Assembly (NCBI GenBank): GCA_046050105.1
Contig: JBJOQE010000042.1
Span: 1-34,380 of the forward strand
Source of the DNA: Candidatus Parcubacteria bacterium
GTDB taxonomy: Bacteria; Patescibacteriota; Minisyncoccia; Phycocordibacterales; UBA918
DNA length: 34,380 nt
Reading direction: 5' to 3'
The notes below the pieces were generated by a model that did no database searches, was not told the origin of the DNA, and saw nothing but the letters and a program-made list of their open reading frames with translations. The first letter of the stretch is position 1; each line of letters opens with the position of its first letter. Both the position numbers and the translations under genes were made by a program. Positions 1,519-22,162 of this stretch are shown here, in pieces.

Positions 1519-3567
<2,049 letters not shown>

Positions 3568-3654
3568 GACGTGCTCCAACGTGAGGTCAAGTATGTGTAC
3601 TACACGGCGAGTCATTTTCTAGCACAGAGCAGGGGTTAGTGATATTATGCGCGT

Positions 3655-3954
3655 ATGGATATTGCTGATATACAACACCTCGCCACCCTTTCGAGGCTGT
3701 ACCTCACTGATACAGAGCAGGCATCTTTTGCTATCGAAGCAGATGCTATCTTGGGATACATCGATCATGTTAAAGGGTTGGCACTCGGTGAGCGCGAACC
3801 AGTGCTTCCCGTACACGTAAATCCGCTTCGTGATGATGCGCGGACGCACGAACCGGGTGCATATACCGAAGCGATTGTGACCGCATTCCCCAAGCGGGCT
3901 GGACAGTATGCGCTTGTTAAAAAAATTCTGAATACGACTAATGATGCCGACTAA
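3655..3954 (+). CDS. gatC: Asp/Glu-tRNA(Asn/Gln) amidotransferase subunit C
   Basis: The 99-aa product begins IQHLATLSRLYLTD.E and lies directly upstream of gatA, overlapping it. Confidence 0.85.
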   Translation: MDIADIQHLATLSRLYLTDTEQASFAIEADAILGYIDHVKGLALGEREPVLPVHVNPLRDDARTHEPGAYTEAIVTAFPKRAGQYALVKKILNTTNDAD

Positions 3955-5359
3955 TTTCGATACTATCAAAAGTCTTCGCACGCGTTTTCTTGCAGGTGAA
4001 GACACTCCTTCTTTGGCACTTGAGCGTGCGCTTGCGGTTATAGCGTCACGTGATGTTGATGTACATGCATATCTTGAAGTGTATGATGATGCGCGTAAAG
4101 CAGCACAAGCAGCGGATCTTCTCTACAAAGAAGGGAAGACGGAAAAGCCTCTTTTAGGCATCCCCGTTGCACTCAAAAATAATATTTTAGTACAAGGTAA
4201 GCGCGCTACGGCCGCATCGAAAATGCTGGAAAATTATGTTGCAACATACGACGCAACAGTCACCACGCGCTTGCGTGAAGCTGGCGCCATCATTATTGGC
4301 GCAACAAATCTAGACGAATTTGCTATGGGTTCATCGACAGAGAACTCAGCATTCGGCGCCACCAAAAACCCACTTGATACGTCACGTGTCCCTGGAGGGT
4401 CTTCAGGCGGTTCTGCAGCGGCAGTGGCTATGGGCAGTGTGCCGGCGGCGCTCGGGACCGACACTGGCGGTTCAATTCGCCTCCCCGCATCGTTTTGTGG
4501 TCTCGTGGGGATGAAGCCAACCTATGGCCGGGTGTCGCGTAGCGGTCTCATTGCTATGGGCTCTTCTCTTGATCAGGCAGGCCCTTTTGCCCATACGGTG
4601 GAAGACGCCGAAACGGTGTTCGGCGTGATACAAGGACAAGATGTGCAGGACGCGACCACCTATGCGGATGCTGAATATCCTGAAGTTCCACAAAAAGAAA
4701 CCTATCGCATCGGTATTCCGCGCGCTTTCATGAAAGGCATCGAGCCTGATGTGATGGCAGTTTTTGACGCAGCGATTGCGCGTTTGCGCAGCGCGGGGCA
4801 CGAGATTGTTGATGTGGATTTGCCTATGATGGAAGAAGGGCTTGCTGCATATTATGTGGTGGTGAATGCAGAAATTTCTTCTAATCTTGCACGGTACGAT
4901 GGCGTGCGCTACGGCCTGCATGTCGAGGGCGCAGACTTGAAAGATGAATACGAGCGTTCACGTGGTCTGGGCTTTGGCTCGGAAGTAAAGCGTCGCATAC
5001 TGCTCGGCACCTACGTCCTTTCTTCTGGTTACTACGACGCGTACTACGGCAAAGCAGAACGTGTGCGTGTGGTGATGCGCGAGGAGTTGGCGCAAGCATT
5101 TAGCACGGTGGACGTCATCCTTACCCCTACTGCACCGATGCCTGCGTTTAAGTTGGGCGAGAAGAGCGATCCACTCTCGATGTACCTCACTGATATTTTT
5201 ACCGTACCGGCTAATCTCACCGGTGTGCCTGCTATTTCGATACCCGCAGGAACTGTTGTGCGTGACGAAGTGTCACTTCCTATTGGCATTCAGTTTATGG
5301 CGCCGCATAATGGAGAGGATAGATTGTTCGACATCGGAAAAAAGTTTGAAGCCACTTAG
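3941..5359 (+). CDS. gatA: Glu-tRNA(Gln) amidotransferase subunit A (amidase signature family)
   Basis: The 472-aa product has the amidase signature GGSSGGSAAAVA...GTDTGGSIRLPASFCG. Confidence 0.95.
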   Translation: MMPTNFDTIKSLRTRFLAGEDTPSLALERALAVIASRDVDVHAYLEVYDDARKAAQAADLLYKEGKTEKPLLGIPVALKNNILVQGKRATAASKMLENYVATYDATVTTRLREAGAIIIGATNLDEFAMGSSTENSAFGATKNPLDTSRVPGGSSGGSAAAVAMGSVPAALGTDTGGSIRLPASFCGLVGMKPTYGRVSRSGLIAMGSSLDQAGPFAHTVEDAETVFGVIQGQDVQDATTYADAEYPEVPQKETYRIGIPRAFMKGIEPDVMAVFDAAIARLRSAGHEIVDVDLPMMEEGLAAYYVVVNAEISSNLARYDGVRYGLHVEGADLKDEYERSRGLGFGSEVKRRILLGTYVLSSGYYDAYYGKAERVRVVMREELAQAFSTVDVILTPTAPMPAFKLGEKSDPLSMYLTDIFTVPANLTGVPAISIPAGTVVRDEVSLPIGIQFMAPHNGEDRLFDIGKKFEAT

Positions 5360-9398: not shown

Positions 9399-9487
9399 GG
9401 AGAAATAGTGGCTACCCACTATTTCTCCGACCAGCGTTCTTATGAGCGAAGCGAATGAGAAAAAGCGGGTCAAGTCTCTTCGACTGC
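9399..9487 (+). repeat. Conserved core X (copy 1) joined to a tRNA-Asp 3'-end-like fragment
   Basis: It aligns with 18437-18528. The 13-bp hairpin differs only by compensatory changes and both copies share the 11-mer gagcgaagcga. The tail at 9470-9487 matches tRNA-Asp 9271-9288 at 16 of 18 positions. Confidence 0.75.
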
Positions 9488-15876: not shown

Positions 15877-17544
15877 ATGACAACACCACGGCAGCGCACC
15901 ACACGACAGAGAAAATACATCTTTGTCGTCGGCGGTGTGATGTCGGGTGTGGGGAAGGGCATTGCCTCTTCATCCATTGGGCTTCTCCTTAAGGCTCGCG
16001 GCCTCACCGTTACCGCACTTAAGATAGACCCGTACATCAACGTCGATGCGGGTACCATGAACCCCACAGAACACGGGGAAGTGTTTGTGCTTAAAGATGG
16101 CCGTGAGACCGACCAAGACATGGGTAACTATGAACGTTTCCTCAACATATCGCTCACTGGCGAAAACTACATGACGACCGGAAGCGTGTACCAGGAGGTG
16201 ATACGCAAAGAGCGCAATCTTGAATATAAAGGAAAAAACGTAGAGGTGGTGCCGCACATTCCGCTTGCCGTTATTGAGAAAATCACCAAGGCAGCAGAAC
16301 GGGAAGACGCCGACGTGACCCTTATCGAGATTGGTGGCACGGTGGGTGAATACCAAAACATTTTGTTCCTCGAAGCTATTCGTATGATGAAAACGGAGCT
16401 CAATGGGAACGTTGCAGTGGTGCTCGTTTCGTATCTTCCGGTGCCTGGTTCCATCGGCGAGATGAAAACAAAGCCTACGCAGTATGCGGCACGGACCCTC
16501 AACAGTGCGGGGGTGTTTGCCGATATCATCATTGCGCGAAGCCCAGTCGGGGTAGATGAGAAGCGGAAGGAGAAAATCGCACAGTTCTGCAATGTAAAAA
16601 AAGAGAACGTTATTTCGGCACCAGACGTAAAGAGTGTGTATGATGTGCCGGTCAATTTTGAAAAGGATGGCATGTCTGCAAAGCTCTGTGAGGTGCTGAA
16701 GCTTGAGTGCAAGCACCCCGCTGACCTCGCTTCATGGAAGCGGTTTGTGGCAAAAACAAAAGCACCCAAAAAGGAGGTGAAGATTGCCGTCGTGGGGAAG
16801 TATTTCTCTTCAGGCGACTTCGTACTTTCTGATGTCTATATTTCAGTACTTGAAGCTATTAAATATTCTGCCTATGCCAAGGGCGCAAAACCGGTCATCA
16901 CTTACCTCTCTTCGGTAGATTTTGAGAAAGGCACCAAGAAACTATCTGATCTTAAGAAGTTTGATGGCGTACTCATCCCGGGTGGCTTCGGCGCAACGGG
17001 CGTGGAAGGGAAAATCAAGGTTATCGAGTACGTACGCAAAAATAACATTCCATTTTTTGGTATTTGCTACGGCATGCAGCTTGCGGTGATTGAGTATGCA
17101 CGAAATGTGCTGAAGCTCACGGGCGCACACACGGCTGAAATAAACCCCAAGGCACCCCATGTGCTCATCGATATCATGCCCGAGCAAAAAGAGAAGATAG
17201 CAAAAAATGACATGGGAGGCACGATGCGTTTGGGTGAGTATGAGGCCATGATTCTCAAAGGCACTCATGCCGCAAAAGCTTATGAAAGTGCAAGGATTAC
17301 CGAGCGCCACCGCCACCGCTATGAGGTAAATCCTGAGTACATTCCAAAACTCGAAGCAGGAGGTTTGGTGTTTTCTGGAAAGTCTAAGGACGGCCGCCTC
17401 ATGGAGATTGCCGAACTACCGAAAGGCGTACATCCATTTTTCGTAGGAGTGCAATTCCACCCCGAGTTTCATGCACGCCCACTCTCACCACATCCTCTTT
17501 TTTCTGCTTTTATTGAAGCATCACTTCGCTCAGAAAGGCGCTGA
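15877..17544 (+). CDS. pyrG: CTP synthase
   Basis: The N-terminus is KYIFVVGGVMSGVGKGI. The glutamine amidotransferase domain carries GICYGMQ and the motif HRHRYEVN. Confidence 0.95.
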   Translation: MTTPRQRTTRQRKYIFVVGGVMSGVGKGIASSSIGLLLKARGLTVTALKIDPYINVDAGTMNPTEHGEVFVLKDGRETDQDMGNYERFLNISLTGENYMTTGSVYQEVIRKERNLEYKGKNVEVVPHIPLAVIEKITKAAEREDADVTLIEIGGTVGEYQNILFLEAIRMMKTELNGNVAVVLVSYLPVPGSIGEMKTKPTQYAARTLNSAGVFADIIIARSPVGVDEKRKEKIAQFCNVKKENVISAPDVKSVYDVPVNFEKDGMSAKLCEVLKLECKHPADLASWKRFVAKTKAPKKEVKIAVVGKYFSSGDFVLSDVYISVLEAIKYSAYAKGAKPVITYLSSVDFEKGTKKLSDLKKFDGVLIPGGFGATGVEGKIKVIEYVRKNNIPFFGICYGMQLAVIEYARNVLKLTGAHTAEINPKAPHVLIDIMPEQKEKIAKNDMGGTMRLGEYEAMILKGTHAAKAYESARITERHRHRYEVNPEYIPKLEAGGLVFSGKSKDGRLMEIAELPKGVHPFFVGVQFHPEFHARPLSPHPLFSAFIEASLRSERR

Positions 17545-17610
17545 CGTACTGCGGCGGTGATATGTACATAAATGTCATGTCGTGGTATAGTCCAATTTAG
17601 GAGGAGACGC

Positions 17611-17979
17611 ATGATGCAATATCTCATACGCTGCCGCACCAGAGCGGACAGCGTATACGACCCTGAACTCCGCAGGTGGGTGCCCTACCATCTCGACTGG
17701 GGATGGTCGAAGGAACACCACGGCTGGACGTACTCGCACCGCAGTGGTGCGCGGTACTCAGCGAGTGGGCAAATTGAGGAGAAACATCTCCCATGTTTGC
17801 TGCGCCACTTTGGCCTGAATGGCTATGCGCAGCTCCCTCCTTTTGAGGAGGTGCAGTGCACGCCACCTGCGGCTCTTGCAGCACTCCGGCGAAGGCGGGA
17901 GGCGGCAGAGTGTCTGACGCCGATGGTGATGCAGAGTCATCGCGTGGGTGGCGCGGTGCTTGCGGAGGAAGTGTCTTAA
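17611..17979 (+). CDS. Hypothetical protein (122 aa, Arg/Trp-rich)
   Basis: AGGAGG lies 6 nt upstream of the ATG at 17611, and a terminator follows the gene. Confidence 0.5.
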   Translation: MMQYLIRCRTRADSVYDPELRRWVPYHLDWGWSKEHHGWTYSHRSGARYSASGQIEEKHLPCLLRHFGLNGYAQLPPFEEVQCTPPAALAALRRRREAAECLTPMVMQSHRVGGAVLAEEVS

Positions 17980-17988
17980 ACCTATGAT

Positions 17989-18017
17989 GCCCTGCTATGT
18001 GCAGGGCCTCTTTTTTT
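17989..18017 (+). terminator. Rho-independent terminator
   Basis: The hairpin gccctgc-tatgt-gcagggc is followed by ctcttttttt. A second small hairpin, gcgc-gaaa-gcgc plus tttttt, follows at about 18035-18052. Confidence 0.8.
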
Positions 18018-18084
18018 ATGGTATGGTATTCACGCGCGAAAGCGCTTTTTTAGAACATCGCAGCTCGTAGTGAAGGGAAGGTAT

Positions 18085-18135
18085 ATTGCCAGATCGTCGT
18101 ATGGTGGGAATGAAACACCATCTGCATGTGGCACA
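18085..18135 (+). pseudogene. Degenerate 5' portion of a tRNA-Gln copy
   Basis: attgccagatcgtc (18085-18098) is identical to 18152-18165. The following sequence resembles the D arm and anticodon arm (caccatctgcatgtgg compared with caccctctggaggtgg) but cannot form a cloverleaf and has no T arm. Confidence 0.6.
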
Positions 18136-18154
18136 CAGATTGTAGAAGAAACAT

Positions 18155-18225
18155 TGCCAGATCGTCTAATGGTAGGACGCCACCCTCTGGAGGTGGTTAT
18201 CTTGGTTCGAGTCCAAGTCTGGCAA
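18155..18225 (+). tRNA. tRNA-Gln (anticodon CTG)
   Basis: Cloverleaf: tgccaga/tctggca acceptor stem, anticodon arm ccacc-ctCTGga-ggtgg and T arm cttgg-ttcgagt-ccaag. Confidence 0.85.
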
Positions 18226-18231
18226 CACGGA

Positions 18232-18258
18232 GCAAAATGCCCTTCGGGGCATTTTTGC
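18232..18258 (+). terminator. Rho-independent terminator after tRNA-Gln
   Basis: The hairpin is aaaatgccc-ttcg-gggcatttt plus T. Confidence 0.8.
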
Positions 18259-18376
18259 GTAGTGTTGCTAGACGGCGCAGCGTTCGCAGAACGCGTTGCG
18301 CGGACTCGAAAGGTTGTCGATAGTTTCGACCATAGGGAGAAAATATCATACAACCTGAACTGGGTTCTGTAAGAAC

Positions 18377-18393
18377 CGAGTCCAAGTCTGGCA
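18377..18393 (+). repeat. Exact 17-nt direct copy of the tRNA-Gln 3' end
   Basis: cgagtccaagtctggca is identical to 18208-18224. It is preceded by ggttc and a 9-nt insertion. Confidence 0.85.
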
Positions 18394-18436
18394 TATAGAA
18401 CCTGTACGGCGGAGACGGGGTACCCTCTGGGTCGTC

Positions 18437-18528
18437 GGAGAAACAGTGAACACTCACTGTTTCTCCGTCCAGCGTTCTTGACGAGCGAAGCGAGTTTAGA
18501 AAAAGCGGGGACGAGTCCAAGTTTGGCA
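18437..18528 (+). repeat. Conserved core X (copy 2) joined to a tRNA-Gln 3'-end-like fragment
   Basis: It aligns to 9399-9487. The tail at 18512-18528 matches 18208-18224 at 16 of 17 positions. A tRNA-Asp anticodon-arm-like piece lies upstream at 18401-18420. Confidence 0.75.
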
Positions 18529-18620
18529 GCCAACTCGTACTAGCACGATAAGCGTTAATGTAACGCTTATCTAATTTTGCATAGACTTAGCAAAGTCTCA
18601 AAAAGCGATATAATTAAGGT

Positions 18621-19181
18621 ATGGAAATTCTTTGTCTCATTACGGATTTCATTTTTGGATACGACTTCCAAGTTTCATTTTGGTCTGGAATTGCTATGTC
18701 AGCGGTTGTTGGCTTTGTTGTATACCAATATACAGATGTGTTTAAGTCGCCAAACTTAGTATTTGTTGTTAAACAAAATGGGTTATATCGAGATACTATT
18801 CAACTAACTAAAGATGGTAAAAAGTACGAAGCGCGTTTTCAGTTTGCTATTAAAAATATTGGTAACAAGGCAATAAAACATAATGAAGGATACTGGCATT
18901 TATACTTAGATGTGAAGAATCCAACAATATTTTCAGCACCAGAAGAAATAAATCATAGCAGAGGTCAGATAAATGGAACTATCTACCCCAGTTCCTTTTT
19001 TGATATAGGACTAGTATATGAACTTGAAATTAATGAGGAGAATTTAAGTAAAGCTGAAATACCATATTTCTTTAGCACTGATTATGGTCAGTTTCCGGAA
19101 ACTGCAGTAATAAATCAAGAAACTGGGGAGGTTCTGTGGAAAGATATGGGCTATATAAAGTTTGAAGTACCAAAGATTTAA
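18621..19181 (+). CDS. Hypothetical protein (186 aa) with an N-terminal TM segment, AT-rich
   Basis: TATAAT (18609-18614) lies 6 nt upstream of the ATG. I recognise no domain. Confidence 0.55.
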   Translation: MEILCLITDFIFGYDFQVSFWSGIAMSAVVGFVVYQYTDVFKSPNLVFVVKQNGLYRDTIQLTKDGKKYEARFQFAIKNIGNKAIKHNEGYWHLYLDVKNPTIFSAPEEINHSRGQINGTIYPSSFFDIGLVYELEINEENLSKAEIPYFFSTDYGQFPETAVINQETGEVLWKDMGYIKFEVPKI

Positions 19182-19296
19182 TCGAGTGCACGAGACGCGT
19201 CGAAATTGAATTCTAAAACATTGCAACTCTGTCAAGCAGGATAAGGTGTCAAGCGGTTCTAGCTCGAGTGTTGCCAGACGCGATATAATAAAGAGC

Positions 19297-19851
19297 ATGG
19301 AAGGTCACATAGAAAAGCAATCAGCGTTTAGAATAGAAACGCCTAAAGTAGGTGATGAAATTGGTTTGGCCCCAATGCATATTCAGGCTTGGAAGGAAAC
19401 TTATGTGACTCCCGAATCGGGGCTTACAGAAGATATGGTAGATGAGATGTTGGGGCACATGCTGACAAATACCGATTTCAGGAAAAATACTATAGCTGAA
19501 TCTCTGGAAAATCCGGGTAAAGTTTTGTATAGGATTGTAAGGAATAACAAAGGAGAGATAGTTGGGTTCATGCATGGTTCAAAAAATGAAGAGTCCAATC
19601 AGCTCGAAGGAATCTATCTGCTTGATGAGGTGAAGGGGTCAGGTACGGGAGGAAAGCTGATGGAAGAATTTCTGGCCTGGGTAGATAAGAATAAGCCAAG
19701 CAATCTTGAAGTCTTTTGCTTCAACGATAGAGCGCTTGGATTCTATACAAAATATGGATTTGTAAAAACAGACAAACCAAGTCAAATGTGGAGAGACAAA
19801 CTGCCTTTCATTGAAATGGTGAGACCTGCTGACATACCTAAAGAAAACTAA
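19297..19851 (+). CDS. GNAT-family N-acetyltransferase
   Basis: The acetyl-CoA motif region is LLDEVKGSGTGGKLMEEF...ALGFYTKYGF. TATAAT (19284-19289) lies 7 nt upstream of the chosen ATG. Confidence 0.75.
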   Translation: MEGHIEKQSAFRIETPKVGDEIGLAPMHIQAWKETYVTPESGLTEDMVDEMLGHMLTNTDFRKNTIAESLENPGKVLYRIVRNNKGEIVGFMHGSKNEESNQLEGIYLLDEVKGSGTGGKLMEEFLAWVDKNKPSNLEVFCFNDRALGFYTKYGFVKTDKPSQMWRDKLPFIEMVRPADIPKEN

Positions 19852-20036
19852 GCGCCTGAGACGCCTTGCTCTGAATATAGTCAGACGGAGTAAGTCGGGC
19901 TTGACCGACCACGGTTCCAGCGCCAGACGGCGCAGCGTTCGTAGAATGCTACTGTTGCGGCCGTTTGCTGTTATGACGAGAACAACTTAGCGCTTTCTCC
20001 CCACTCCAAGTACAATCAATTACTAACGTATACCCC

Positions 20037-20531
20037 ATGCCCTCGACTCTCCCCACCACACACACCCTCGAAGTCCGCACCTCCCGCAATGGCTTGGGGG
20101 TTTTTGTGAAGCGGGCTTTCAAGGCAGGGGAGGTACTCTACGTAGTTGAAGGCAAGAAAGTTACCTGTGACATAGACGACGACATGGATGAGCAAGCGCG
20201 GTCAAACACGTACCGCTTTGACGAGGAGTACTACCTAAGCCCGCAAGGAACACTTGGCGACTACTTTAACCACTCATGTCACCCGAATGCGAAGGTGGAG
20301 AAAAGAGGGCAGAAGCTCCGCATGGTGGCAATACGAAACATACCTCAAGGTAGGGAGGTATGTTTCGACTACTCGACCATTACCGCTTCAGACGATGTGT
20401 GGAAGATGCGCTGCCACTGTGGCGAGAAGATGTGCAGAAAGAGTATTCGTTCCTTTGGTACACTCCCGTCACCGCTTCAGTGTCGCTATATACGAGAGCA
20501 GATTGTTCCCCAGTACATTCTGGATATATAA
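20037..20531 (+). CDS. SET-domain protein (putative protein-lysine methyltransferase) with a post-SET Cys cluster
   Basis: It has the motifs NHSCHPN, EVCFDYS and the C-terminal cluster CHCGEKMC. Confidence 0.8.
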   Translation: MPSTLPTTHTLEVRTSRNGLGVFVKRAFKAGEVLYVVEGKKVTCDIDDDMDEQARSNTYRFDEEYYLSPQGTLGDYFNHSCHPNAKVEKRGQKLRMVAIRNIPQGREVCFDYSTITASDDVWKMRCHCGEKMCRKSIRSFGTLPSPLQCRYIREQIVPQYILDI

Positions 20532-20537
20532 ATGCAT

Positions 20538-20561
20538 AAAAGCACCCGGAAGGGTGCTTTT
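20538..20561. terminator. Bidirectional terminator between convergent genes
   Basis: The hairpin is aaaagcaccc-ggaa-gggtgctttt. Confidence 0.75.
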
Positions 20562-20579
20562 ATGTGTTGTGTGGAGTGG

Positions 20580-20810
20580 TTATTTCTTTTTCGGAGCTGC
20601 CTTTTTTGCTGGTGCTGGGGCGGTGACTGTCATGTCGGTAATCTTTTCGGTAGATGCCCATACCTTGAGTTTCTTGATGGCGTTCATTGCCGCGCGACGT
20701 TCAACGTATCCTTCACCGCCTTCAGCAACACTCTCACCATTACGTGAGACAAGCTTCCATCTGAAGTGTCCCGCTTTATCTTTGTAGAGTTCAAAACTAG
20801 TTGTGCTCAT
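20580..20810 (-). CDS. YegP/DUF1508-like small protein with a Lys/Ala/Pro tail
   Basis: The segment FELYKDKAGHFRWKLVSRNGESVAEG.GY resembles the YegP (UPF0339) repeat. Confidence 0.7.
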   Translation of the reverse strand: MSTTSFELYKDKAGHFRWKLVSRNGESVAEGGEGYVERRAAMNAIKKLKVWASTEKITDMTVTAPAPAKKAAPKKK

Positions 20811-20911
20811 AGGGGTATTTTTTGATGACTAACATGAGTATCATACACCACCCACTGAAGCTTGCTTGAGCGCGAGGTGAACAGGGGCATAATCACTGGT
20901 AGAATACTATT

Positions 20912-22162
20912 ATGCAAAGAATATTTTTGTCGATTTTACTCATGCTGGTGATACTGGTGCCCCTAGGTGCACAAGCGACTGCACCACAGCCAGGCACGGT
21001 GCAAGACCTCGAGCTCCAGCTTGGGGCGGTGCGTGCGTATATTGCGCGAACCGATGCCGCGAGGCGATATATCGCTCTCTCATCAGTTGATATGCGGGCA
21101 GTTATCAATGATGGAACGAACTGGCTCATTACGTCACAAGAACCGAGCGGCCACTTTACATATGAGTATGCGCCATTTGAAGGGGAGTATCTGCATGGAG
21201 ACAACATCGTGCGGCAAGTTGGGGCGTTGTTTGCGCTTGGTGAAGTGTATCGACTTAAGAAAGAGTACGATCCGGCGCTTGCCAAAAGTATCACGCAAGC
21301 AATTGCCTATTTCACCTCGCTCGAAGTATCAGGAAAGGAGGCAGGCGTCACATTTGTATGTATTGGCACCACTGCTAAAAAGCGAGACTGCAAACTTGGT
21401 GCGGCTGCGCTCGCACTCATTGGTCTCCTCGATTACGTGGAGCAGAATCCACGTGCTGATAAAACCTACGCACCGCTTATCCAGGGGTACACATCGTTTA
21501 TTCTCGCGGCACAAAAAGAGTCAGGAGGGTTTCGCGATCTCTACCGAGTCGAAGATGGGTTTGTGAACAGAGAATCACCCTACTCAAACGGCGAAGCACT
21601 TTTGGCATTAGTGCGCGCGTATCAGTATAAGAAAGATGAGGAGGTTAAACACGCAATTGATAGTGCGTTCACGTACCTCAAAACGACTGAGTATGTAAAT
21701 CCATTGTATCTATGGATTATGGCTGCGCTTAAAGATATGAATCGCCTATGGCCAAGCTCTGACTATGTCACCTATGCGCGTGATTTCACGACGTGGCGTA
21801 TACGAAATGCTGGATATCCAAAAAGCACGCACAACTACTGCCCATATGTGGAGGGTTTGGTGAGTGCCTACAGCGTACTTGCGGCCAACCCTGAAAAAGG
21901 GGAGCTTGAGTCGCTTCGTGCACACATTGACCCTTGGCATGCCTATCACCGTACACTGCAGCTTGCAGCGACTGAACCGTACCGTGTGATGGCGAATAGT
22001 AAAGGCACACCAATCATACAGAAGATAGCCGATACAGCACTCGCGACCGGAGGTTTTTTAACCGGGCCAAACGTACCGACACAACGTATCGACTTCACGC
22101 AACACTGTGTGAGCGCCTACCTTCAGACATTGGTTGACATCGATGGTGAAGTTTTGCGCTAA
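20912..22162 (+). CDS. Secreted protein with prenyltransferase/terpene-cyclase-like alpha/alpha-toroid repeats (tentative)
   Basis: It has a signal peptide and repeated Q..SGGF-type motifs (QEPSGHF, QKESGGF, ATGGF). TAGAAT lies 6 nt upstream of the ATG. Confidence 0.5.
   Translation: MQRIFLSILLMLVILVPLGAQATAPQPGTVQDLELQLGAVRAYIARTDAARRYIALSSVDMRAVINDGTNWLITSQEPSGHFTYEYAPFEGEYLHGDNIVRQVGALFALGEVYRLKKEYDPALAKSITQAIAYFTSLEVSGKEAGVTFVCIGTTAKKRDCKLGAAALALIGLLDYVEQNPRADKTYAPLIQGYTSFILAAQKESGGFRDLYRVEDGFVNRESPYSNGEALLALVRAYQYKKDEEVKHAIDSAFTYLKTTEYVNPLYLWIMAALKDMNRLWPSSDYVTYARDFTTWRIRNAGYPKSTHNYCPYVEGLVSAYSVLAANPEKGELESLRAHIDPWHAYHRTLQLAATEPYRVMANSKGTPIIQKIADTALATGGFLTGPNVPTQRIDFTQHCVSAYLQTLVDIDGEVLR

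Follow-up and report, generated by a model that had tools for sequence, protein, structure and literature searches.

A tRNA-Gln locus in a Patescibacteria genome as a stack of structured modules and small insertions, possibly built by serine recombinases

How does one tRNA gene in a small bacterial genome come to be followed by repeated copies of its own 3' end and by two short AT-rich genes? The locus that raises this question spans positions 18085-19946 of the window (the whole stretch of 34,380 nucleotides that was analyzed, contig C42 of an assembly of 810 kb in 81 contigs with 50% GC) and is flanked by pyrG and a gene for a SET-domain protein. It was examined against a comparison set of 81 family genomes; below, G, C and L numbers denote genomes, contigs and loci, with G000 being the window's own genome and G001 and G002 belonging to the same genus. 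The best explanation is that the locus is a tRNA-anchored stack of small insertions of a kind common in Patescibacteria, and 'accretion hotspot', the term used in a first-pass annotation made from the sequence alone, is a fair description of it. Judging from their junctions, the units carrying the two open reading frames (ORFs), ORF1 and a GNAT acetyltransferase gene, appear to be discrete insertions. We lean cautiously toward the view that these gene units were built by accretion of cassettes at tRNA-tail sites, driven by large serine recombinases (LSRs). The locus reads as follows.

18077-18131, + strand: decayed 5' two-thirds of a tRNA-Gln gene (acceptor 5' strand, D arm and anticodon arm; no T arm)
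18155-18226, + strand: tRNA-Gln(CTG) without an encoded CCA (ARAGORN; Rfam RF00005, 62.1 bits)
18227-18393, + strand: unit X1, made up of a trailer, a hairpin resembling a terminator (18233-18257), an inverted and at the same time site-like tail copy, AGTGTTGCTAGACG joined to GCGCAG (18261-18280), a structured core (18275-18384) and tail copy 1 (18377-18393)
18394-18528, + strand: unit X2, with a perfect hairpin of 14 bp (18436-18467), the motif GAGCGAAGCGAG and, at its end, tail copy 2 (18512-18528)
18529-18548, + strand: interrupted site, left half G CCAAC TCGTACTAGCACGA, a near-palindrome
18549-19193, + strand: ORF1 unit of 645 bp between two copies of the direct repeat GCACGA (6 nt), with a hairpin (18547-18571), a promoter-like TTAGCA-16-TATAAT (18587-18614) and ORF1 (18621-19181); its joined ends read ..GTGCACGA followed by TAAGCG..
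19194-19280, + strand: remainder of E element A, whose head CACGAGACGCGTCGAAAT starts at 19189 and whose tail-like end GGTTCTAGCTCGAG runs into AGTGTTGCCAGACG (19267-19280)
19281-19929, + strand: GNAT unit of 649 bp between two copies of the direct repeat GCCAGACG (8 nt), with the box GCGATATAAT (19280-19289), the GNAT ORF (19297-19851) and E element B; its joined ends read ..GCCAGACG followed by CGATATAAT..
19852-19929, + strand: E element B, continuing to a pseudo-tail end at 19936
19930-19965, + strand: repeat of the 5' hairpin segment of X1 (GCGCAGCGTTCGTAGAATGC...), not followed by a core

The repeats, ORFs and composition shift listed in the first-pass annotation are each present at the place given there, and the repeats are above chance level. 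The intact tRNA-Gln gene was recovered by ARAGORN (18155-18226) and by Rfam as a tRNA at 62.1 bits. Its 17-nt tail CGAGTCCAAGTCTGGCA lies at 18208 and recurs at 18377 (17 of 17 positions) and 18512 (16 of 17), as described for the two direct 3'-end copies (18377-18393 and 18512-18528); it is absent elsewhere in the 810-kb assembly, and 300 Markov shuffles of the region yielded exact direct repeats of 15 nt at most. The two inverted copies are equally real: 18261-18273 matches the reverse complement of tail plus trailer at 11 of 12 positions, and 19268-19279 is an exact 12-mer, with a chance expectation for a given 12-mer of 1.3e-4 per 2.2 kb. Upstream of the tRNA gene, 18077-18109 matches 18145-18177 at 27 of 33 positions, including the exact 14-mer ATTGCCAGATCGTC, which bears out the proposed degenerate 5' portion with its 14 identical nucleotides, and by eye the likeness extends beyond 18109 to about 18131 through the anticodon arm. 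Comparable 5' tRNA fragments lie upstream in G020, L087 and G001 and at contig C24 of G000. On the + strand NAGACG occurs seven times versus 1.5 expected (P about 0.001), three of them at unit junctions, and the boundary motif gtgttgcYagacg, suggested for a genome-wide search, was found nowhere beyond the tRNA-Gln locus.

The ends of the gene units emerge when the units are taken out in silico. Removal of 18549-19193 gives CCAACTCGTACTAGCACGA joined to GACGCGTCGAAAT, a sequence that is uninterrupted in L073, L080 and G015; this uninterrupted form consists of a tRNA tail and then TCGTGCTAGCACGAGACGC.., which many genomes have 2 nt downstream of the CCA end of tRNA-Ser, tRNA-Trp and tRNA-Glu genes or behind tail copies. 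Removal of 19281-19929 restores a 34-mer identical at 31 of 34 positions to 18261-18294, the start of X1, and the restored site reads AGTGTTGCCAGACG joined to GCGCAGCG...; one X module carries an unoccupied copy of the site. This nesting also bears on the direct repeat that had been taken to bound the whole block. The repeat is present (25 of 28 positions between 18267-18294 and 19922-19949, and 23 of 25 over the shorter span first described), but it does not bound the block, since the 649-bp GNAT unit lies within a second copy of the first 34 nt of X1. The AT-rich block with its two ORFs is as described, with a GC content of 0.31-0.43 over 18600-19800 versus 0.50 for the genome. As an observation on the ORF1 target, many genomes have the perfect palindrome TCGTGCTAGCACGA of 14 nt, usually with GACGC behind it, exactly 2 nt downstream of the encoded CCA of tRNA-Ser, tRNA-Trp and tRNA-Glu genes (G000:C49:3212-3225; L135, L137, L148, L151, L152, L154, L157), and in some of the Ser loci it is part of the hairpin CTAGCACGAGAC-GCTT-GTCTCGCGCTAG.

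Both genes are found elsewhere in differing contexts. ORF1 is predicted to be a membrane-anchored Ig-like protein: its AlphaFold model (AF2; predicted local distance difference test score, pLDDT, 84) has an N-terminal helix at residues 2-37, in keeping with the transmembrane protein announced for 18621-19181, and an Ig/CARDB-like beta-sandwich. Fold matches were weak, and ORF1 matched no Pfam or NCBIfam family. The 18 clusters of homologues found among 5.8 billion are all about 186 aa long and all from Paceibacterota. ORF1 stands directly behind tRNA-Gln(CTG or TTG) in G020, G027 and L084-L088, in L085 between perfect 23-nt repeats of the tRNA tail, and it is AT-richer than its host contig in six of six contigs checked. 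The GNAT assignment of 19297-19851 stands on three Pfam profiles above their gathering scores, namely PF13508 (37.4 bits, cut-off 27), PF00583 (35.2, cut-off 20.7) and PF13673 (34.8, cut-off 23.6), and no NCBIfam equivalog reached its cut-off. Homologues of the GNAT gene fall into 91 clusters with up to 86% identity, all named sources being metagenome-assembled genomes of the Patescibacteria group. In L124 a GNAT gene 82% identical to that of the window, again with a GGCGATATAAT box, comes after tRNA-Glu, a module and a tail copy; in L126 and L127 a GNAT gene follows the pseudo-tail ..AGACAGCCAGC. The gene is AT-richer than its host in three of four contigs checked. A GNAT homologue 5.5 kb from tRNA-Gln in G006 lacks flanking E elements and pseudo-tails and is therefore of no help in placing the junctions. 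The surroundings vary as well: pyrG upstream is conserved, and the region 3' of tRNA-Gln is different in every relative examined, with three gene-less modules in G002 and an AT-rich LSR island in G001; ORF1 was not seen in the stretches examined 3' of tRNA-Gln in these two same-genus genomes.

Two side observations concern ORF1 homologues. Four metagenome contigs have no gap at all between the 3' end of the tRNA-Gln gene and the ATG (..GCAGC, then ATG; the tRNA genes are L085:421-495, L086:3929-4003, L087:1168-1242 and L088:80-154), so that 3' processing of the tRNA could release a leaderless mRNA. The ORF1 cassette of G020 (L012:4381-4953) includes, ahead of its E element, a second gene with a HEPN domain (52.5 bits), which is possibly defense or toxin cargo.

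Each of the two genes is followed by an E element, a conserved sequence of about 90-100 nt with the pattern CACGAGACGCGTCGAWWT ... TCAAGCAGGGCTTGRCCGT ... GGTTCYAGC..AGACGGC.AGC. The pattern occurs 23 times in 16 of the 81 family genomes, versus 0 for a reversed-pattern control. The 3' end of E imitates the tRNA tail from the T loop onward, and its last 7-8 nt follow the acceptor end of the tRNA at the head of the locus: behind tRNA-Trp (..CGCCCGCCA) E ends in ..GGCCCGCC, i.e., ..GCCCGCC, behind tRNA-Gln (..CGGCAGC) it ends in ..GGCCAGC, and in L085 its end is a perfect 23-nt copy of the tRNA-Gln tail. E folds no better than shuffled sequence (z of +1.2 for element A and -0.7 for element B). 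Conserved in sequence yet unfolded, E has the properties expected of a putative duplex protein-binding site.

An enzyme that could act at such sites is encoded in related genomes. LSR homologues with a Resolvase, Recombinase and Zn_ribbon architecture are present in 52 of the 81 family genomes, and in about 18 of 30 fetched loci (L023-L052; most of the others are cut by contig ends) the LSR gene converges on the 3' end of a tRNA gene. Eleven tRNA types are represented (Glu, Ser, His, Leu, Arg, Ile, Ala, Gln, Asn, Tyr and others). In at least 15 loci the LSR reading frame extends 13-72 nt antisense inside the tRNA gene, so that the last ~20 codons of the enzyme are supplied by the complement of the tRNA gene. 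AT-rich LSR islands of the 6-kb class directly follow tRNA-Gln in G001, G013 and G078. The island of G013 sits between ..GGCAGC and the trailer ACGAGARTTAAAAGCGCC.., which adjoins the tRNA directly in G002 and G006, and the islands of G013 and G078 end in the pseudo-tail AAAAGTTCGAACATCGTCMMAGACAGCCAGC. A second type of island (G015, G023, G092) carries a 440-aa LSR and a ParB-like DNA methylase and ends in an E element; contig C50 of G000 holds the right end of an island of this type. The G015 island begins 2 nt after tRNA-Trp with TCGTGCTAGCACGAGACGC, the left motif of the window's ORF1 cassette. The window cassette and the G015 island thus have in common the left motif TCGTACTAGCACGA/TCGTGCTAGCACGA and the right E element, so that the cassettes of the window have the ends of LSR elements but not the enzyme. 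Separately, the G001 island (L018, the reverse complement of G001:C81:1-8000) encodes at 2835-5352 a 325-aa protein with what looks by eye like a Rep motif (..RRYCFTIHNY..), which hints that this island is an integrated small rolling-circle replicon.

From these resemblances a mechanism can be proposed. The LSRs of the family would integrate DNA either right at the 3' end of a tRNA gene or a few bases beyond it, and the far end of the inserted DNA would resemble a tail or a site; the target would thereby be recreated with each insertion, and units would accumulate. The ORF1 and GNAT units may be recombinase-less relatives of LSR islands, AT-rich, self-promoted and ~650 bp long, that entered ..GAGACG/CAGACG-type sites with the help of an LSR that acted in trans or was later lost. 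We infer that these two particular units were moved by an LSR, and likewise where its crossovers fell and in which order the events took place. The serial cassette capture envisaged in the first-pass annotation holds for the gene units, which have discrete ends, duplicated short flanks, genes known from other contexts and a variable region downstream; it does not extend to X1 and X2, which are not cassette debris, nor does the 23/25 repeat mark the limits of a captured block.

Several findings weigh against an LSR as the builder of the gene units. LSR crossover requires only 2 bp of identity, and the flanking repeats of 6, 8, 11, 17 and 23 nt exceed that need; flanks of 6-23 nt are more typical of tyrosine integrases, or would require arm mimicry. 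Profile searches found no recombinase on the window contig, in agreement with the earlier remark that no integrase is visible there, and matches in G000 were confined to contigs C3, C24 and C63. That remark is only part of the picture, as a credible LSR exists in relatives, including at the same tRNA-Gln site. With four LSRs as queries, tblastn against the islet matched the antisense tRNA alone and no LSR remnant. The sole LSR assembled in G000 (C24:13581-15064), whose frame runs antisense into tRNA-Glu(CTC), is of a type whose islands end in a different pseudo-tail. E elements are found in only 16 of 81 genomes, three of which have no LSR match. The number of structured modules per genome bears no relation to the presence of an LSR (rho -0.06; 13 genomes with at least 20 modules have no LSR), so at least half of the locus needs another explanation. 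ORF1 homologues diverge to 61-74% amino acid identity and the neighborhood prfB-ftsEX-...-tRNA-Gln-ORF1 recurs, which would fit old vertical inheritance with losses. Finally, a strictly comparable empty site is lacking, since synteny downstream of the locus breaks down even within the genus: in G001 and G002 the genes in question (SET and a 416-aa protein) either lie at other places or were not detected.

The gene-less units X1 and X2 appear to form a separate layer of the locus, ubiquitous, selected for their fold and with flanks tailored to each tRNA. Both have the tRNA-Gln tail as their end. When the locus was compared with relatives by BLAST, 18302-18384 drew many short matches, with 80-93% identity and several per genome, and within G000 copies of the X1 type stand behind tRNA-Gln(TTG), Glu, Ser and other tRNA genes. 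X2 is 84% identical to window positions 9399-9469, behind tRNA-Asp, and has matches in many relatives. The parts of a module follow one another in a set order, beginning with the tRNA trailer and terminator, an inverted acceptor 3' strand and a variable hairpin P2, continuing with a reverse-complement T-loop/T-stem, a conserved long hairpin P4 and a short hairpin P5 with the loop CTGTAAG, and ending in a direct copy of the adjoining tRNA's own tail. A covariance model of the module core, R1, had 1389 matches in 79 of the 81 family genomes (up to 45 per genome). G000 has 20 modules, at least 13 of them directly 3' of a same-strand tRNA gene, and X1 itself scores 80 bits (E 1e-17). Its DNA fold (-34.3 kcal/mol, z -6.2) has an acceptor-like outer stem enclosing P2, P3, P4 and P5; the overall fold of X2 is weaker (z -2.7). 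Among 54 aligned copies, 26 of 27 pairs have compensatory changes, and 93.8% of cells are paired, versus 65% in shuffles and ~40% with slid partners. Mismatches are G:T in 35 cases and A:C in 13, a mild hint that one strand of the module folds. In a search of 17000-21000 against Rfam 15 with E values up to 1, the tRNA was the sole match, and none was obtained for X1, X2 or E. Such an abundance of strongly covarying, structured members, after many tRNA genes and in 79 of 81 genomes, does not accord with X1 and X2 being the debris of captured cassettes. The direct-inverted-direct arrangement of tail copies around two hairpins could make a module a folded-strand recombination substrate, a transcript-level switch or the product of replication template switching. 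Two candidate mobilizers of the modules were rejected: LSRs, with whose presence copy number is uncorrelated, and transposases of the Y1 type, related to the REP-associated tyrosine transposases (RAYT), whose genes are in only 45 of 81 genomes and do not co-occur with the modules.

One possibility that would dispense with capture is that the X modules, perhaps together with E, serve the host as functional elements attached to its tRNA genes, ORF1 being an old vertical neighbor of tRNA-Gln. The modules might act as structured RNAs, as DNA sites where transcripts are processed or terminated, or as a three-segment switch in which the antisense tail segment pairs with the tRNA tail or with the module's own copy, and the appearance of accretion would come mostly from duplication and divergence of such elements. 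The spread of R1 modules over 79 of 81 genomes, with at least 13 of 20 in G000 directly 3' of a same-strand tRNA gene, the covariation (26 of 27 pairs, 93.8% paired cells, G:T 35 versus A:C 13), the independence of copy number from both LSR and Y1 transposase, and the recurrent ORF1 neighborhood are all as this explanation would have it. It is harder to reconcile with tandem stacks of modules that differ in number and type at the same tRNA gene between same-genus genomes, and with modules that lie upstream of tRNA genes, in pseudo-tRNA copies or without a tRNA gene nearby; moreover, no Rfam family was matched, and both gene units have duplicated flanks and occur in other contexts elsewhere. 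We consider a host function of this sort unlikely as the account of the whole locus.

Recombination by other enzymes has also to be weighed. The locus might be a set of decayed classical tRNA islands of tyrosine integrases, which would have entered by crossover in the T loop, duplicated the 3' end of the tRNA gene as attL/attR and afterwards lost their integrase by deletion. The AT-richness of the inserted genes and the direct repeats of the 3' part of the tRNA, which begin in the T loop (the 17-nt tail, present three times, and the perfect 23-nt repeat in L085), are what such islands would leave, but the only tyrosine recombinase of G000 is Xer-like and on another contig (C3, the sole PF00589 gene, XerD/XerA-like with 248.6 bits versus a XerA cut-off of 220 and well below the cut-offs for integron integrases). 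In the LSR-homologue loci the enzyme beside the tRNA tail is an LSR, the relatives having not been searched for tyrosine integrases. The segments of 135-170 nt between tail copies are conserved members of structured families rather than products of decay, and it is short repeats other than the tail that bound the gene units; we thus regard this origin as quite improbable. A structure-guided single-strand route, like that of integron attC sites, the attP(+) site of CTX phage or IS200/IS605 elements, would instead use Xer or an HUH/Y1 enzyme, and the folded strand of a module would imitate the duplex end of a tRNA gene. The inverted and direct tail copies of X1 do form acceptor-like and T-like stems (z -6.2), G000 has a RAYT-like Y1 gene, and the G001 island carries what by eye is a Rep-type initiator (CFTIHNY). 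Against this, Y1 genes are present in only 45 of 81 genomes and none was found in many module-rich genomes, the E elements that close the gene units are unfolded, and neither attC-type core sites (by eye) nor an integron integrase was found, so that a single-strand route strikes us as very doubtful. As for the Y1 genes themselves, the one at G000:C63:6151-6489 (-) is the sole one in the genome and scores 70 bits versus a cut-off of 80; relatives of ~225 aa occur singly in many genomes, and G023 and G078 hold 10-16 copies of the IS200/IS605 type.

Accretion of cassettes by LSRs, the reading that we prefer, has a close likeness in the staphylococcal cassette chromosome (SCC/SCCmec; CcrAB/CcrC at the 3' end of rlmH) and in other LSR elements (phiC31, Bxb1, A118), in which an LSR inserts DNA at the 3' end of a conserved gene and, for SCC, recombinase-less elements with the same ends accumulate in tandem at one site. 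In contrast to SCC, the targets here are the 3' ends of many tRNA genes, the LSR frame runs antisense into the tRNA gene, a unit of ~650 bp can consist of one gene and its own promoter, and the far end imitates the tRNA tail; unlike LSR elements, the window has no LSR, the Resolvase/Recombinase/zinc-ribbon enzyme being found in G001, G013, G078, G015, G023, G092 and at G000:C24. Integrons and clusters of attC sites lacking integron integrases (CALINs) resemble the locus in being one-directional arrays of small, mostly single-gene units closed by a conserved ~100-nt element, and CALINs likewise have no internal recombinase. The differences are that the sole tyrosine recombinase here is Xer-like and not an integron integrase, that the array is anchored on a tRNA gene, that E elements are not hairpins, that no conserved GTTRRRY/RYYYAAC pair was seen (by eye, with no formal scan) and that each unit has its own -10 box instead of a shared Pc promoter. 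A reading of the locus as an integron was rejected for want of IntI, for the unfolded E elements and for the separate promoter of each cassette. Islands at tRNA genes, cis-mobilizable elements (CIMEs) and satellites of the tycheposon type share with the locus the tandem, non-autonomous units delimited by tRNA 3'-end repeats and the accretion at tRNA genes. They use tyrosine integrases, whereas a serine enzyme occupies these sites in relatives, and some units here are conserved structured modules of 135-170 nt with an inverted tail copy. Repetitive extragenic palindromes and bacterial interspersed mosaic elements (REP/BIME) with their RAYT are, like the X modules, high-copy gene-less intergenic hairpins, and G000 has a single RAYT-like gene, but the modules are tied to tRNA 3' ends with flanks matched to each tRNA, and RAYT/Y1 genes were not found in many module-rich genomes. 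We know of no repeat family with flanks matched in this way.

Patescibacteria, or bacteria of the candidate phyla radiation (CPR), have genomes under 1 Mb and are thought to be little capable of gene exchange. It is conceivable, though on balance we doubt it, that they have a counterpart of the integron that works with serine recombinases and is anchored on the 3' ends of tRNA genes. In such a system modules of the X1 type (~1400 copies in the 81 genomes) would supply and multiply landing sites, spreading by a fold- or pairing-guided route that rewrites their flanks to each tRNA, and LSRs acting in trans would shuffle E-closed, self-promoted cassettes between tRNA genes and genomes. A limited full-text search of the literature found no description of serine-recombinase arrays or tail-module arrays in CPR bacteria. 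If the interpretation is right, a tRNA-anchored platform for stacking genes would explain variation in accessory, surface and defense genes in Patescibacteria, cassette-type gene capture would have a third enzyme chemistry, and a family of serine integrases with natural and diverse tRNA-gene targets would be at hand. The X modules, for their part, are a very abundant and strongly covarying structured element that has no Rfam family.

The promoters of the two cassettes fit a wider habit of the genome. The box shared by both ORFs in the first-pass annotation was confirmed: the genome has just two copies of GCGATATAAT, at 18605 and at 19280, which precede the respective ATGs by 6 and 7 nt, and ORF1 has in addition a promoter match at 10 of 12 positions. 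Strict -10 variants lie at -16..-5 in 13% of long ORFs genome-wide, versus 2.8% at a control position. Since a -10 box near the ATG is thus common throughout the genome, the layout is ordinary here and only the shared 10-mer is special. Shine-Dalgarno-like motifs precede only 8% of ORFs, and together these patterns point to widespread leaderless or very short-leader mRNAs, as judged from upstream motifs.

A few further observations concern tRNA genes and what follows them. In two genera a conserved sequence of ~95 nt with a terminator, CCAACTCGAGGTAGGTTATCGCGCACGAGACGCGTCGAAAC...GCTGAGAGCAGTA.., lies directly 3' of tRNA-Gln (L081, L061, L076 and L082, from G007, G047, G093 and G092); Rfam gave no match to this trailer in L076 and L081. 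At G000:C34:2925-3004 (-) a tRNA-like 3' half (..GGTTCGAGTCCTGGTCGCGGAGCA) is followed by a terminator and two R1 modules; ARAGORN made no call at this place, so the half may belong to an atypical tRNA or to a pseudo-tRNA. ARAGORN also reported tRNA genes with unusual anticodons (G000:C30:12403-12476; L027:924-1011; L036:2937-3010; L157), namely tRNA-Ile(TAT) in G000 and G014 and tRNA-Ser(ACT) in two relatives.

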